Sequence record: LC710217.1
Length of the DNA stretch: 3,576 bases
From: Escherichia phage MS2
Reading direction: 5' to 3' (one strand)
Part shown: positions 1 to 3,576 of the stretch, in pieces
How positions within the stretch are numbered: the first letter of the stretch is position 1
Layout: each line of letters opens with the position of its first letter
Position numbers and translations under genes: made by a program
Notes under the pieces: model-generated
Databases searched by the model: none
Told to the model about the DNA's origin: nothing
The model's input: the letters and a program-made list of their open reading frames with translations, nothing else

Positions 1-48
1 GGCCGATTCTATTTTTCGCCGTTTACCTGCTTATCTTTTTCCTGCTCA

Positions 49-55
49 ACTTCCT
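49..55 (+). promoter_or_regulatory. Candidate upstream complementary sequence (UCS) that can pair with the maturation-gene Shine-Dalgarno
   Basis: acttcct (49..55) can pair with aggaggt (135..141) as 6 Watson-Crick pairs plus one G-U wobble. Levivirus maturation-gene translation is known to be controlled by SD sequestration in a long-range 5' UTR helix. The exact partner is assigned by inspection only. Confidence 0.4.
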
Positions 56-134
56 GTCGAGCTAATGCCATTTTTAATGTCTTTAGCGAGACGCTACCAT
101 GGCTATCGCTGTAGGTAGCCGGAATTCCATTCCT

Positions 135-141
135 AGGAGGT
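135..141 (+). promoter_or_regulatory. Shine-Dalgarno sequence of the maturation (A) protein gene
   Basis: aggaggt lies 7-8 nt upstream of the GTG at 149..151. This is a strong, near-consensus SD. Confidence 0.85.
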
Positions 142-148
142 TTGACCT

Positions 149-1330
149 GTGCGAGCTTTTAGTACCCTTGATAGGGAGAACGAGACCTTCGTCCCCTCCG
201 TTCGCGTTTACGCGGACGGTGAGACTGAAGATAACTCATTCTCTTTAAAATATCGTTCGAACTGGACTCCCCGTCGTTTTAACTCGACTGGGGCCAAAAC
301 GAAACAGTGGCACTACCCCTCTCCGTATTCACGGGGGGCGTTAAGTGTCACATCGATAGATCAAGGTGCCTACAAGCGAAGTGGGTCATCGTGGGGTCGC
401 CCGTACGAGGAGAAAGCCGGTTTCGGCTTCTCCCTCGACGCACGCTCCTGCTACAGCCTCTTCCCTGTAAGCCAAAACTTGACTTACATCGAAGTGCCGC
501 AGAACGTTGCGAACCGGGCGTCGACCGAAGTCCTGCAAAAGGTCACCCAGGGTAATTTTAACCTTGGTGTTGCTTTAGCAGAGGCTAGGTCGACAGCCTC
601 ACAACTCGCGACGCAAACCATTGCGCTCGTGAAGGCGTACACTGCCGCTCGTCGCGGTAATTGGCGCCAGGCGCTCCGCTACCTTGCCCTAAACGAAGAT
701 CGAAAGTTTCGATCAAAACACGTGGCCGGCAGGTGGTTGGAGTTGCAGTTCGGTTGGTTACCACTAATGAGTGATATCCAGGGTGCATATGAGATGCTTA
801 CGAAGGTTCACCTTCAAGAGTTTCTTCCTATGAGAGCCGTACGTCAGGTCGGTACTAACATCAAGTTAGATGGCCGTCTGGTGTATCCAGCTGCAAACTT
901 CCAGACAACGTGCAACATATCGCGACGTATCGTGATATGGTTTTACATAAACGATGCACGTTTGGCATGGTTGTCGTCTCTAGGTATCTTGAACCCACTA
1001 GGTATAGTGTGGGAAAAGGTGCCTTTCTCATTCGTTGTCGACTGGCTCCTACCTGTAGGTAACATGCTCGAGGGCCTTACGGCCCCCGTGGGATGCTCCT
1101 ACATGTCAGGAACAGTTACTGACGTAATAACGGGTGAGTCCATCATAAGCGTTGACGCTCCCTACGGGTGGACTGTGGAGAGACAGGGCACTGCTAAGGC
1201 CCAAATCTCAGCCATGCATCGAGGGGTACAATCCGTATGGCCAACAACTGGCGCGTACGTAAAGTCTCCTTTCTCGATGGTCCATACCTTAGATGCGTTA
1301 GCATTAATCAGGCAACGGCTCTCTAGATAG
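149..1330 (+). CDS. mat: Maturation protein (A protein / assembly protein), GUG-initiated, 393 aa
   Basis: ORF of 393 codons starting GTG at 149 and ending TAG at 1328..1330. The translation (MRAFSTLDRENETFVPSVRVYADGETEDNSF...LDALALIRQRLSR) matches my recollection of the MS2 A protein. A GUG start with a strong upstream SD is the known arrangement. First gene in canonical levivirus order. Confidence 0.96.
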   Translation: MRAFSTLDRENETFVPSVRVYADGETEDNSFSLKYRSNWTPRRFNSTGAKTKQWHYPSPYSRGALSVTSIDQGAYKRSGSSWGRPYEEKAGFGFSLDARSCYSLFPVSQNLTYIEVPQNVANRASTEVLQKVTQGNFNLGVALAEARSTASQLATQTIALVKAYTAARRGNWRQALRYLALNEDRKFRSKHVAGRWLELQFGWLPLMSDIQGAYEMLTKVHLQEFLPMRAVRQVGTNIKLDGRLVYPAANFQTTCNISRRIVIWFYINDARLAWLSSLGILNPLGIVWEKVPFSFVVDWLLPVGNMLEGLTAPVGCSYMSGTVTDVITGESIISVDAPYGWTVERQGTAKAQISAMHRGVQSVWPTTGAYVKSPFSMVHTLDALALIRQRLSR

Positions 1331-1343
1331 AGCCCTCAACCGG

Positions 1344-1366
1344 AGTTTGAAGCATGGCTTCTAACT
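1344..1366 (+). promoter_or_regulatory. Coat-gene initiator hairpin with the AUG in the loop, preceded by SD ggag (1342..1345)
   Basis: agtt (1344..1347) pairs with aact (1363..1366) and gaagc (1349..1353) pairs with gcttc (1357..1361), leaving atg 1354..1356 as the loop. GGAG sits about 8 nt upstream of the ATG. This matches the well-studied MS2 coat initiator hairpin whose stability tunes coat translation. Confidence 0.7.
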
Positions 1367-1746
1367 TTACTCAGTTCGTTCTCGTCGACAATGGCGGAAC
1401 TGGCGACGTGACTGTCGCCCCAAGCAACTTCGCTAACGGGGTCGCTGAATGGATCAGCTCTAACTCGCGTTCACAGGCTTACAAAGTAACCTGTAGCGTT
1501 CGTCAGAGCTCTGCGCAGAATCGCAAATACACCATCAAAGTCGAGGTGCCTAAAGTGGCAACCCAGACTGTTGGTGGTGTAGAGCTTCCTGTAGCCGCAT
1601 GGCGTTCGTACTTAAATATGGAACTAACCATTCCAATTTTCGCTACGAATTCCGACTGCGAGCTTATTGTTAAGGCAATGCAAGGTCTCCTAAAAGATGG
1701 AAACCCGATTCCCTCAGCAATCGCAGCAAACTCCGGCATCTACTAA
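1354..1746 (+). CDS. cp: Major coat (capsid) protein, 130 aa including the initiator Met
   Basis: ORF from ATG 1354 to TAA 1744..1746, immediately followed by an in-frame TAG 1747..1749 (tandem stops). The translation MASNFTQFVLVDNGGTGDVTVAPSNFANGVAEWISSNSRSQAYKVTCSVRQSSAQNRKYTIKVEVPKVATQTVGGVELPVAAWRSYLNMELTIPIFATNSDCELIVKAMQGLLKDGNPIPSAIAANSGIY matches the MS2 coat protein as I recall it. Confidence 0.98.
   Translation: MASNFTQFVLVDNGGTGDVTVAPSNFANGVAEWISSNSRSQAYKVTCSVRQSSAQNRKYTIKVEVPKVATQTVGGVELPVAAWRSYLNMELTIPIFATNSDCELIVKAMQGLLKDGNPIPSAIAANSGIY
1446..1452 (+). promoter_or_regulatory. Min Jou long-distance interaction, 5' partner (inside the coat gene)
   Basis: tgaatgg at 1446..1452 is the exact reverse complement of ccattca at 1757..1763, just upstream of the replicase start. 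The 7-bp helix does not extend on either side. It corresponds to the known MS2 interaction that represses replicase initiation until ribosomes translating the coat gene open it. Confidence 0.8.
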
Positions 1747-1924
1747 TAGACGCCGGCCATTCAAACATGAGGATAACCCATGTCGAAGACAACAAAGAAG
1801 TTCAACTCTTTATGTATTGATCTTCCTCGCGATCTTTCTCTCGAAATTTACCAATCAATTGCTTCTGTCGCTACTGGAAGCGGTGATCCGCACAGTGACG
1901 ACTTTACAGCAATTGCTTACTTAA
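1697..1924 (+). CDS. lys: Lysis protein L, 75 aa, in the +1 frame overlapping the coat 3' end and replicase 5' end
   Basis: ORF from ATG 1697 to TAA 1922..1924. The translation METRFPQQSQQTPASTNRRRPFKHEDNPCRRQQRSSTLYVLIFLAIFLSKFTNQLLLSLLEAVIRTVTTLQQLLT has the hydrophobic C-terminal segment typical of MS2 L. It matches my recollection of MS2 L except N at residue 27, where I recall Y. There is no strong SD, consistent with the known coupling of L translation to coat-gene termination. Confidence 0.93.
   Translation: METRFPQQSQQTPASTNRRRPFKHEDNPCRRQQRSSTLYVLIFLAIFLSKFTNQLLLSLLEAVIRTVTTLQQLLT
1757..1763 (+). promoter_or_regulatory. Min Jou long-distance interaction, 3' partner (upstream of the replicase start)
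   Basis: ccattca is the reverse complement of 1446..1452 (tgaatgg). Confidence 0.8.
1765..1783 (+). promoter_or_regulatory. Translational operator (TR) hairpin: coat-protein binding site and packaging signal covering the replicase SD and AUG; loop variant with A at -5
   Basis: acatgaggataacccatgt. Stems acat/atgt and gg/cc, bulged A at 1770 (-10), 4-nt loop 1773..1776 (ataa), replicase ATG at 1780..1782, SD gagga at 1769..1773. The canonical MS2 operator as I recall it is ACAUGAGGAUUACCCAUGU with loop AUUA. Here position 1775 (-5) is A, not U. Confidence 0.9.
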
Positions 1925-3417
1925 GGGACGAATTGCTCACAAAGCATCCGACCTTAGGTTCTGGTAATGACGAGGCGACCCGTCGTACCTTAGCTATCGC
2001 TAAGTTACGGGAGGCGAATGATCGGTGCGGTCAGATAAATAGAGAAGGTTTCTTACATGACAAATCCTTGTCATGGGATCCGGATGTTTTACAAACCAGC
2101 ATCCGTAGCCTTATTGGCAACCTCCTCTCTGGCTACCGATCGTCGTTGTTTGGGCAATGCACGTTCTCCAACGGTGCCTCTATGGGGCACAAGTTGCAGG
2201 ATGCAGCGCCTTACAAGAAGTTCGCTGAACAAGCAACCGTTACCCCCCGCGCTCTGAGAGCGGCTCTATTGGTCCGAGACCAATGTGCGCCGTGGATCAG
2301 ACACGCGGTCCGCTATAACGAGTCATATGAATTTAGGCTCGTTGTAGGGAACGGAGTGTTTACAGTTCCGAAGAATAATAAAATAGATCGGGCTGCCTGT
2401 AAGGAGCCTGATATGAATATGTACCTCCAGAAAGGGGTCGGTGCCTTTATCAGACGCCGGCTCAAATCCGTTGGTATAGACCTGAATGATCAATCGATCA
2501 ACCAGCGTCTGGCTCAGCAGGGCAGCGTAGATGGTTCGCTTGCGACGATAGACTTATCGTCTGCATCCGATTCCATCTCCGATCGCCTGGTGTGGTGTTT
2601 TCTCCCACCTGAGCTATATTCATATCTCGATCGTATCCGCTCACACTACGGAATCGTAGATGGCGAGACGATACGATGGGAACTATTTTCCACAATGGGA
2701 AATGGGTTCACATTTGAGCTAGAGTCCATGATATTCTGGGCAATAGTCAAAGCGACCCAAATCCATTTTGGTAACGCCGGAACCATAGGCATCTACGGGG
2801 ACGATATTATATGTCCCAGTGAGATTGCACCCCGTGTGCTAGAGGCACTTGCCTACTACGGTTTTAAACCGAATCTTCGTAAAACGTTCGTGTCCGGGCT
2901 CTTTCGCGAGAGCTGCGGCGCGCACTTTTACCGTGGTGTCGATGTCAAACCGTTTTACATCAAGAAACCTGTTGACAATCTCTTCGCCCTGATGCTGATA
3001 TTAAATCGGCTACGGGGTTGGGGAGTTGTCGGAGGTATGTCAGATCCACGCCTCTACAAGGTGTGGGTACGGCTCTCCTCCCAGGTGCCTTCGATGTTCT
3101 TCGGTGGGACGGACCTCGCTGCCGACTACTACGTAGTCAGCCCGCCTACGGCAGTCTCGGTATACACCAAGACTCCGTACGGGCGGCTGCTCGCGGATAC
3201 CCGTACCTCGGGTTTCCGTCTTGCTCGTATCGCTCGAGAACGCAAGTTCTTCAGCGAAAAGCACGACAGTGGTCGCTACATAGCGTGGTTCCATACTGGA
3301 GGTGAAATCACCGACAGTATGAAGTCCGCCGGCGTGCGCGTTATACGCACTTCGGAGTGGCTAACGCCGGTTCCCACATTCCCTCAGGAGTGTGGGCCAG
3401 CGAGCTCTCCTCGGTAG
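1780..3417 (+). CDS. rep: RNA-directed RNA polymerase (replicase beta subunit), 545 aa
   Basis: ORF from ATG 1780 to TAG 3415..3417. The translation begins MSKTTKKFNSLCIDLPRDLSLEIYQ and ends TFPQECGPASSPR, and contains the polymerase motif IGIYGDDIICPS. Last gene in canonical levivirus order, with its start embedded in the operator hairpin. Confidence 0.97.
   Translation: MSKTTKKFNSLCIDLPRDLSLEIYQSIASVATGSGDPHSDDFTAIAYLRDELLTKHPTLGSGNDEATRRTLAIAKLREANDRCGQINREGFLHDKSLSWDPDVLQTSIRSLIGNLLSGYRSSLFGQCTFSNGASMGHKLQDAAPYKKFAEQATVTPRALRAALLVRDQCAPWIRHAVRYNESYEFRLVVGNGVFTVPKNNKIDRAACKEPDMNMYLQKGVGAFIRRRLKSVGIDLNDQSINQRLAQQGSVDGSLATIDLSSASDSISDRLVWCFLPPELYSYLDRIRSHYGIVDGETIRWELFSTMGNGFTFELESMIFWAIVKATQIHFGNAGTIGIYGDDIICPSEIAPRVLEALAYYGFKPNLRKTFVSGLFRESCGAHFYRGVDVKPFYIKKPVDNLFALMLILNRLRGWGVVGGMSDPRLYKVWVRLSSQVPSMFFGGTDLAADYYVVSPPTAVSVYTKTPYGRLLADTRTSGFRLARIARERKFFSEKHDSGRYIAWFHTGGEITDSMKSAGVRVIRTSEWLTPVPTFPQECGPASSPR
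2794..2805 (+). other. Catalytic YGDD motif (RdRp motif C) within the replicase
   Basis: Codons tac ggg gac gat in the rep frame encode Y-G-D-D within IGIYGDDII. This is the conserved active-site motif of levivirus replicases. Confidence 0.9.
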
Positions 3418-3576
3418 CTGACCGAGGGACCCCCGTAAACGGGGTGGGTGTGCTCGAAAGAGCACGGGTCCGCGAAAGCGGTGGCTCCACCGAAAGGTGG
3501 GCGGGCTTCGGCCCAGGGACCTCCCCCTAAAGAGAGGACCCGGGATTCTCCCGATTTGGTAACTAGCTGCTTGGCG
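3418..3576 (+). other. 3' untranslated region with a series of stable stem-loops; the terminal hairpin is truncated
   Basis: GC-rich noncoding tail after the rep stop. Hairpins read by eye: 3431..3444 (ccccg-UAAA-cgggg), 3450..3465 (gtgctc-GAAA-gagcac), 3470..3481 (ccgc-GAAA-gcgg), 3487..3500 (ccacc-GAAA-ggtgg), 3503..3514 (gggc-UUCG-gccc) and 3541..3553 (cggga...tcccg). The 5' arm of the terminal hairpin (ggtaactagc, 3558..3567) and its loop (tgcttg, 3568..3573) are present, but the 3' arm and terminal CCCA are missing. Confidence 0.8.

Follow-up and report, generated by a model that had tools for sequence, protein, structure and literature searches.

A conserved array of GC-rich tetraloop hairpins in the 3′ untranslated region of Escherichia phage MS2, with a probably architectural role

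The stretch of DNA analysed here (sequence record LC710217.1; 3,576 nucleotides of one strand, hereafter the window) comes from Escherichia phage MS2. In megablast comparisons against phage records, window positions 40-3575 were aligned with MS2 21-3556 at 99.4-99.6% identity (GQ153927, V00642/NC_001417), and the wastewater isolate LC710218 was 100% identical to the window over 45-3555; an MS2 position is obtained by subtracting 19 from the window position. The open reading frame list places the maturation, coat, lysis and replicase genes in the MS2 order, and the replicase frame ends at 3417 with the stop codon UAG (3415-3417; plus strand, as are all features described below). The hairpin array that is the subject of this study occupies 3431-3514, corresponding to MS2 3412-3495, and because it lies downstream of the replicase stop codon it belongs to the 3′ untranslated region (UTR). 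Its location directly 3′ of the replicase stop, in a genome collinear with MS2, is that of the MS2-type (Emesvirus zinderi) 3′-terminal domain. At its two ends the window departs from the reference: bases 1-39 have no match to MS2, and the sequence stops 13 nt short of the genome 3′ end, its last base being G where MS2 has U. Without these last 13 nt, neither the terminal hairpin nor the helix that closes the domain can form in the window.

In an exhaustive scan for 4-nt loops closed by perfect Watson-Crick stems of 4 bp or longer, the array was resolved into five consecutive hairpins, which folding also returned. H1, CCCCG[UAAA]CGGGG (3431-3444), was recovered by the scan and in the fold of the 84 nt, whereas H2, GUGCUC[GAAA]GAGCAC (3450-3465), H3, CCGC[GAAA]GCGG (3470-3481), H4, GC-U-CCACC[GAAA]GGUGG-GC (3484-3502, core 3487-3500), and H5, GGGC[UUCG]GCCC (3503-3514), were recovered by the scan and in the folds generally. 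All five stems are perfectly Watson-Crick paired and all loops are 4 nt long; in H4, a 2-bp extension (3484/3485-3501/3502) continues the helix beyond a bulged U. Three loops have the GNRA form (GAAA at 3456-3459, 3474-3477 and 3492-3495), each closed by a C-G pair, and H5 has a UNCG loop, UUCG, likewise closed by C-G. The earlier note on this DNA had described five consecutive hairpins at 3431-3514, three capped by GAAA, one by UUCG and one by UAAA, and both direct reading and the exhaustive scan match that description exactly. With three G-N-R-A loops, one U-N-C-G loop with C-G closure and GC-rich Watson-Crick stems, the array resembles the GNRA and UNCG tetraloop classes, although those classes are defined by three-dimensional loop geometry and the loops of the array are known from sequence alone.

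This array is the long-known hairpin cluster of the MS2 3′ UTR, and as such is not new: the cluster has featured in secondary-structure models of the genome since it was sequenced. The 1976 model of Fiers reportedly already shows these hairpins, and the 1990 study by Adhin, Alblas and van Duin of the 3′ regions of RNA coliphages is said to show them as well. A reading of the letters had in this case recovered a genuine RNA structure, and one that is selected, as the comparisons below indicate.

Folding supports the hairpins as local elements. The minimum free energy (MFE) structure of the 84 nt consists of exactly the five hairpins (-44.2 kcal/mol, z = -3.68), and none of 200 shuffles was as stable. 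In a partition function calculated on the last 900 nt, with the termini repaired with MS2 reference bases, H2-H5 had pair probabilities of 0.91-1.0 (H2, 0.96-1.0; H3, 0.91-0.97; H4, 0.94-0.99; H5, 0.98), and H1 was weaker (0.41-0.71). The MFE fold of the whole genome (3,569 nt) kept H2-H5 and swapped H1 for an alternative local pairing; of its 33 tetraloops only five are of the GNRA or UNCG type, four of which lie in the array. The GAAA loops were unpaired in all folds. Pairing with distant partners, which the earlier note had named as the outcome that would speak against local hairpins, was not observed in the 84-nt, 900-nt or whole-genome folds. The 159-nt UTR in the window, 13 nt short of the genome end, is unexceptional in stability when taken as a whole (z = -1.37). 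The reverse complement of the array folds as a mirror array (-41.6 kcal/mol, z = -4.5), and the hairpins are therefore available on both plus and minus strands; the special loops (GNRA and UUCG), unlike the stems, are found on the plus strand only. The hairpins are thus local, autonomous and very stable, and they are so on both strands.

The surroundings of the array agree with the published description of the 3′ ends of these phages. According to Rumnieks and Tars, who summarise the models of the van Duin laboratory (PMC3561173), a long-distance interaction, ld IX, pairs the extreme 3′ terminus with an upstream stretch and so forms a 3′-terminal domain in all of these phages; the domain includes hairpin U1, whose UGCUU loop is conserved, hairpin U2, and hairpin V, which has an A-rich loop and is a probable maturation-protein site, and in MS2 the domain is closed by ld IX and contains seven hairpins (PMC3561173). 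In the window, the 5′ arm of ld IX is UGGGUG at 3445-3450, whose partner, the genome 3′-terminal CACCCA, is missing from the window; complete MS2, fr and GA records do contain the complementary 3′ end. All nine lineages compared have UGGGU without variation, and it extends to UGGGUG in eight of them and to UGGGUC in the metagenomic lineage L069. In complete MS2 records ld IX is possible, but RNAfold favours an alternative GGGU at 3466-3469 (P ~0.74), which is not conserved in group II phages. Because thermodynamic folding in this way puts ld IX after H2 and not before it, the exact domain boundary rests on conservation rather than on energy. H1 directly precedes the ld IX arm, between the last replicase hairpin and UGGGUG, and so is not part of the closed 3′ domain, of which H2 is the first hairpin. 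The last replicase hairpin, of the R1 type, is CCUCGGU/ACCGAGG at 3409-3427 (pair probabilities 0.93-1.0 in the 900-nt fold); as a feature of the flanking context outside the array, the replicase stop codon falls in and beside its loop.

On its 3′ side the array is followed by hairpin V (3516-3541), GGG.CCUC / GAGG.CCC with an A-rich loop, as described in PMC3561173; its pair probability is 0.70-0.84 (900 nt), and three of its pairs are compensatory relative to fr. It is succeeded by a short U2-type hairpin, GGGA[UUC]UCCC (3542-3552; pair probability 0.75-0.99, 900 nt), and by U1 (3558-3576), of which the window holds only the 5′ arm and the UGCUU loop (3558-3573), the 3′ arm lying beyond the window end; in complete records the pair probability of U1 is 1.0. 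H2, H3, H4, H5, V, the U2-type hairpin and U1 together make up seven hairpins, in agreement with PMC3561173. The assignment of the region to a structured 3′ domain of a levivirus 3′ UTR, as made in the earlier note, is accordingly borne out by the local folds and by the domain described in that paper. As regards other known elements, no Rfam family was matched in the 3′ UTR at E values up to 1, the sole match in the window being the operator RF02359 at 1748-1783, and ARAGORN found no tRNA or tmRNA fold in the window that, with no Rfam match in the 3′ UTR either, would point to a tRNA-like 3′ structure.

Among MS2-like isolates, the array hardly varies. The 3′ UTR of MT830620 has 0/158 differences from the window, against 7.6-9.0% in the three large genes (binomial P = 7e-7), and no differences were found in the array relative to modern MS2 and R17 isolates. 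The array of FrBlood differs at 1 of 84 positions, a C-G pair becoming a U.G wobble; this C to U change is in the H4 stem and is shared with FrHenna. In isolate J20 the H3 loop has changed from GAAA to GUAA, which is still GNRA, so that both natural changes seen in the array among MS2-like isolates preserve structure or motif. Phage fr, ~21% diverged from MS2 in the replicase gene, retains the loops GAAA, GAAA, GAAA and UUCG, and its H1 loop is UAAG. Its H3 is identical to that of the window; its H4, GCUCAUCA[GAAA]UGGUGGGU, carries two C-G to A-U double changes around an unchanged loop; and its H5, GAGGG[UUCG]CCCUC, combines the same loop with a different stem, in which the closing pair is flipped to G-C. 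The latter two hairpins were read from single-sequence folds and not from RNAalifold on MS2 and fr; as MAFFT mis-registers fr at indels, RNAalifold scores the true compensatory changes of H4 and H5 as broken pairs. For V and U1, RNAalifold reports compensatory pairs between MS2 and fr. The group I F-specific coliphages (MS2, R17, f2, fr) thus have the same element in the same order: H1, UGGGUG, four tetraloop hairpins, V, the U2-type hairpin and U1. The window differs from the group I reference in being cut 13 nt before the end, so that U1 and ld IX are not closable within it, and the 1976 reference (V00642/NC_001417) reads H3 as GGGUGCGAAAGCGGUCCGG, unlike the window. These comparisons indicate strong purifying selection on the array, together with covariation in its stems.

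To these were added the group II phages GA, KU1 and BZ13 (Emesvirus japonicum), JS strain DL54 and two metagenomic sequences, L069 and L065, for a total of about nine lineages. H1 is kept in DL54 as CCCCG[UAAU]CGGGG, in GA, KU1 and BZ13 as CCCC[GNAU]GGGG and, with compensatory changes, in L069 as CAUCG[UAAC]CGAUG; it is thermodynamically less secure than the other hairpins, yet its counterparts in relatives argue for it. H2 is GNRA-capped in eight of the nine lineages, on five different stems (GUGCUC, GCCGC, GUGACC, GGGACC and CUGUUC), the non-GNRA loop being the AUUU of L065. Group II and DL54 share with MS2 the H1 hairpin, UGGGUG, a first domain hairpin with GAAA or GUAA, and U1 with a ACCACCCA end. 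Unlike MS2, however, group II has only three hairpins plus U1 inside the domain and lacks the UUCG hairpin (H5), V and the U2-type hairpin; the loops of its second and third hairpins are of 4 to 6 nt and of other sequence, and DL54 has a different set of three hairpins. L069, with 49% replicase identity, has an array of its own with six tetraloop hairpins. The 3′ domain of Qbeta and SP is like that of MS2 in that the 3′ end is sequestered by ld IX and the U1 loop is UGCUU (PMC3561173), and unlike it in that it numbers about three hairpins only, without a tetraloop array. The long-range pseudoknot formed by the U1 loop, which is essential for replication, has been demonstrated experimentally for Qbeta only (PMC3561173). 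Across the family, then, the pattern appears to be a variable number of small stable hairpins on a conserved frame. In this comparison of levivirus 3′ UTRs, which the earlier note had proposed, the compensatory stems and retained loops fit the hairpins.

The metagenomic sequences came from a scan with a replicase alignment that gave 18 loci, mostly without a complete 3′ end or ending in sequencing adapter; only two of these could be used, L069 and L065, each of them truncated. Pattern scans of IMG/VR were also run. The pattern GGGGTGGGTGTGNNNCGAAAG gave no matches; GGACCNCCCN{5,6}GGGGTGGGTG gave 48, among which the only levivirus, as judged by tblastn with the replicase, was GA itself; and TGCTTGGCTAGNNACCACC gave GA and one unrelated match. 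As to whether the array arose by tandem duplication, Tandem Repeats Finder reported nothing, and the sole trace, agreement at 9 of 11 positions in the 5′ halves of hairpins H2 and H3, is within chance.

Could so dense a cluster have arisen simply from base composition? The region has a G+C content of 69%, compared with 52% for the genome, and a chance product of this high regional G+C, with no selected structure, would on that count be conceivable. However, when the 84 nt were shuffled 20,000 times with the dinucleotide content preserved, a shuffled sequence held on average 0.39 non-overlapping hairpins and at most 4 (none had at least 5; observed, 5), and on average 0.033 GNRA- or UNCG-capped hairpins and at most 2 (observed, 4). 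The observed counts were matched in 0/20,000 of these shuffles, as the earlier note had anticipated in calling such a concentration of tetraloops unlikely by chance. Of the 40 perfect tetraloop hairpins in the whole window, only five are capped by GNRA or UNCG and four of these are within 3450-3514; the densest 84-nt window of the genome begins exactly at 3431. The compensatory changes in relatives and the strong purifying selection argue in the same direction, and the array as a by-product of G+C, refuted by the shuffle test and the covariation, has a negligible probability. A contribution of the hairpins to packaging has more to be said for it. Tetraloops are the commonest format of packaging signals in MS2, and in a 2026 molecular-dynamics preprint the stem-loops 3454-3458 and 3466-3476 (H3 and H4) were 'tightly bound' to coat protein during simulated genome extraction, a weak form of evidence; the hairpins might accordingly be coat-protein contacts, or secondary packaging signals, by which the 3′ tail would be held at the capsid beside the maturation protein. 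Yet the 3.6 A cryo-EM structure shows 15 stem-loops bound to coat dimers (PMC9023274), and the array hairpins are absent from this set: none of the 15 is in MS2 3412-3495, and the nearest is at 3359-3372. The MS2 operator and packaging stem-loops (RF02359) are, like the array, short tetraloop hairpins of the same genome; unlike them, the array loops do not have the A-N-Y-A pattern and the stems have no bulged purine. Coat-protein recognition requires an A at -4, a pyrimidine at -5 and a bulged purine in the stem. This motif is absent from the array because GAAA has a purine at -5, UUCG lacks the -4 adenine and the stems have no bulged purine; neither the GAAA, UUCG and UAAA loops nor the perfect stems correspond to an operator or packaging signal, and RF02359 has no match in the array. 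We therefore regard coat contacts as quite improbable.

As for the maturation protein, to which the earlier note had also linked the array, the mapped sites (window 3529-3551) lie just 3′ of it, and that claim is unsupported for the array itself. The biochemically mapped 3′ site is MS2 3510-3527, or window 3529-3546 (Koning et al., PMC5007439), and according to the 2026 simulation preprint, built on the cryo-EM model, the beta domain of the protein holds the stem-loop MS2 3524-3532, or window 3543-3551 (10.64898/2026.05.27.727985). The first of these overlaps the 3′ half of hairpin V, which adjoins the array, and the second falls in the short U2-type hairpin (3542-3552). The main texts of the footprinting preprint and of the CLIP-Seq paper contain neither the labels 3U1-3U6 nor a mention of '3 UTR'. 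The array itself is probably not a binding site for either the maturation or the coat protein.

Two further alternatives assign the function to the loops. Three GAAA loops within 45 nt, where the rest of the genome has one other GNRA-capped hairpin, all unpaired in every fold and belonging to a genome with a defined three-dimensional fold in the virion (PMC5007439), could dock in helical receptors elsewhere in the genome, thereby building a compact tertiary fold of the 3′ domain or tying it to another domain. There is no canonical 11-nt GAAA receptor on the plus strand, however, because its half-site CCUAAG is absent (a single match is on the minus strand); the other half, UAUGG, is no more frequent than chance; and the structural reports found make no mention of GNRA contacts. 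Such docking therefore seems very doubtful. Somewhat better placed, but still unlikely, is the proposal that the loops are recognition elements: a GNRA-capped GC hairpin beside the CCCA-3′ end would be recognised by the replicase holoenzyme or by one of its host subunits, and the stacked tetraloops would offer a sequence-specific platform for minus-strand initiation. The loops are kept where stems change (H4 and H5 of fr, the GNRA loop of H2 in eight of nine lineages, GUAA in J20), the UTR is invariant at 8.5% genome divergence, and in MS2 and fr a GC hairpin with a GAAA cap, followed by CACCC, likewise stands at the end of the minus strand, so that both templates offer a similar motif near the initiation site. 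Against this, no experiment found in the literature shows replicase contact with the array, and in a cell-free system both MS2 UTRs together were insufficient for minus-strand synthesis from engineered plus strands, with internal elements probably needed as well (Weise et al., PMC6847885); the same result leaves the role in replicase recognition that the earlier note had ascribed to the array without support. Group II phages, moreover, lack H5 and cap their second and third hairpins with penta- and hexaloops that are not GNRA, and L065 carries AUUU on H2. GNRA and UUCG are also simply the most stable caps, and thermodynamic selection alone can therefore explain the retention of the loops.

The best explanation, and one that we hold to be right with better than even confidence, is that the MS2 3′ UTR hairpin cluster acts architecturally; here the structure is known and the function is what we infer. 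The four or five GC-rich, GNRA- or UUCG-capped hairpins would serve as autonomous, fast-folding and very stable architectural modules. With them, hardly any RNA of the tail would stay single-stranded, which would limit nuclease attack. Since the mirror hairpins of the minus strand fold just as well, the modules may re-form locally on both template and product, and could in this way help to prevent the two strands from annealing in the wake of the replicase. They would also keep the neighbouring maturation-protein-binding hairpins, and the 3′ end that ld IX sequesters, in a constant geometry. Such a role agrees with the principle, reportedly set out by Olsthoorn and van Duin and by Arora et al., that unstructured RNA is selected against in these genomes.

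Near-absolute conservation and the exact loops in fr nevertheless exceed what such an architecture needs, since any stable loop would serve, and this hints at sequence-specific recognition. The retention of loops despite stem change is not fully accounted for by the architectural reading and leaves limited room for such recognition, whose likelihood we would put as low. If the loops were specific recognition elements, they would help to define the template requirements of the MS2 replicase on the plus strand, which are poorly understood and which matter for building MS2-based self-replicating RNA systems. A more specific proposal, to which we give a low probability, is that a GNRA-capped GC hairpin beside CCCA-3′ on both templates is a shared initiation determinant of the MS2 replicase, which the additional GAAA- and UUCG-capped hairpins found in group I would reinforce or present. 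The motif in question consists of ld IX and H2 on the plus strand; its minus-strand counterpart in MS2 and fr, GGACCCC[GAAA]GGGGUCC-CACCC, is complementary to the 5′ hairpin.

The third hairpin of the tetraloop array in the 3' UTR (H3, 3470-3481) is affected by a discrepancy between the window and the 1976 MS2 reference. Positions 3451-3463 of the reference (NC_001417.2) read GGGUGCGAAAGCGGUCCGG, whereas the corresponding window segment (3470-3482) reads GGGUCCGCGAAAGCGGUGG, a reading common to the window, R17, fr and every modern MS2 isolate that was compared. Only GGGUCCGCGAAAGCGGUGG forms the 4-bp hairpin CCGC(GAAA)GCGG, which the 1976 reading does not. On this comparison of sequences, GGGUGCGAAAGCGGUCCGG in NC_001417.2 is likely to be an old sequencing error.

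Sequence conservation is much stronger in the two UTRs than in the genes between them. Relative to the MS2-like isolate MT830620, the 3' UTR (3418-3575) is identical over all 158 positions and the 5' UTR (40-148) differs at 2 of 109, whereas the coding regions differ by 7.6-9.0%. A 57-codon open reading frame with a GTG start (3357-3530) covers the end of the replicase gene together with the hairpin array; the high G+C content of the UTR produces it mechanically, and it shows no sign of being a gene.

The two ends of the window depart from MS2. Bases 1-39 (GGCCGATTCTATTTTTCGCCGTTTACCTGCTTATCTTTTT) stand where MS2 has its conserved 5'-terminal hairpin GGGUGGGACCCCUUUCGGGGUCC. They have no match on either strand, whether in MS2 or elsewhere in the window, and fold only weakly (-4.2 kcal/mol); they are probably an artefact of assembly or end repair. 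At the other end (3563-3576), the window stops within the 3'-terminal hairpin U1, 13 nt before the MS2 3' end, and therefore lacks the 3' arm of U1 as well as the terminal CACCCA, which forms one arm of ld IX, the long-distance pairing with UGGGUG at 3445-3450. The final base of the window is G, where MS2 has U.

A comparable arrangement is found on the complementary strand. In MS2 (positions 1-25 of NC_001417.2) and in fr, the 3' end of the minus strand consists of GGACCCC(GAAA)GGGGUCC followed by CACCC. This GC hairpin with a GAAA cap, adjoining the initiation end, resembles the plus-strand arrangement of ld IX and the GAAA-capped hairpin H2, and hairpin H1 of the array (GGGACCCCC...GGGGU) is similar to the 5' hairpin.

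Among the metagenomic loci with replicase alignments, the relative Ga0255252_1001044 (replicase identity 49%) also carries six successive tetraloop hairpins in its 3' UTR (3211-3318), with the loops UGAA, UAAU, UAAC, GAAA, UAAU and GAAA, and a UGGGU element precedes the first of its GAAA hairpins; the 3' end of this contig is truncated. Because about 1.5 kb of unrelated sequence (1326-2804) follows the replicase-like segment of OGVK01000944.1, that contig may be chimeric. A third locus, L067, ends in the sequencing adapter AGATCGGAAGAGC, preceded by CUGGGAAAC, and the latter sequence also terminates loci L065 and L066.

Upstream, at window position 1775 (U1756 in MS2), the loop of the coat-protein operator hairpin reads AUAA instead of AUUA, which places a purine at -5; the published operator motif has a pyrimidine at this position. 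The hairpin with the AUAA loop still scores 56 bits in Rfam, and the same change is present in the wastewater isolate LC710218.1, the closest relative of the window. The GenBank record of this isolate contains Illumina adapter at its two ends (1-46 and 3558-3605). Its sequence is deposited as the reverse complement of MS2, yet the annotated features carry plus-strand coordinates like those of MS2.
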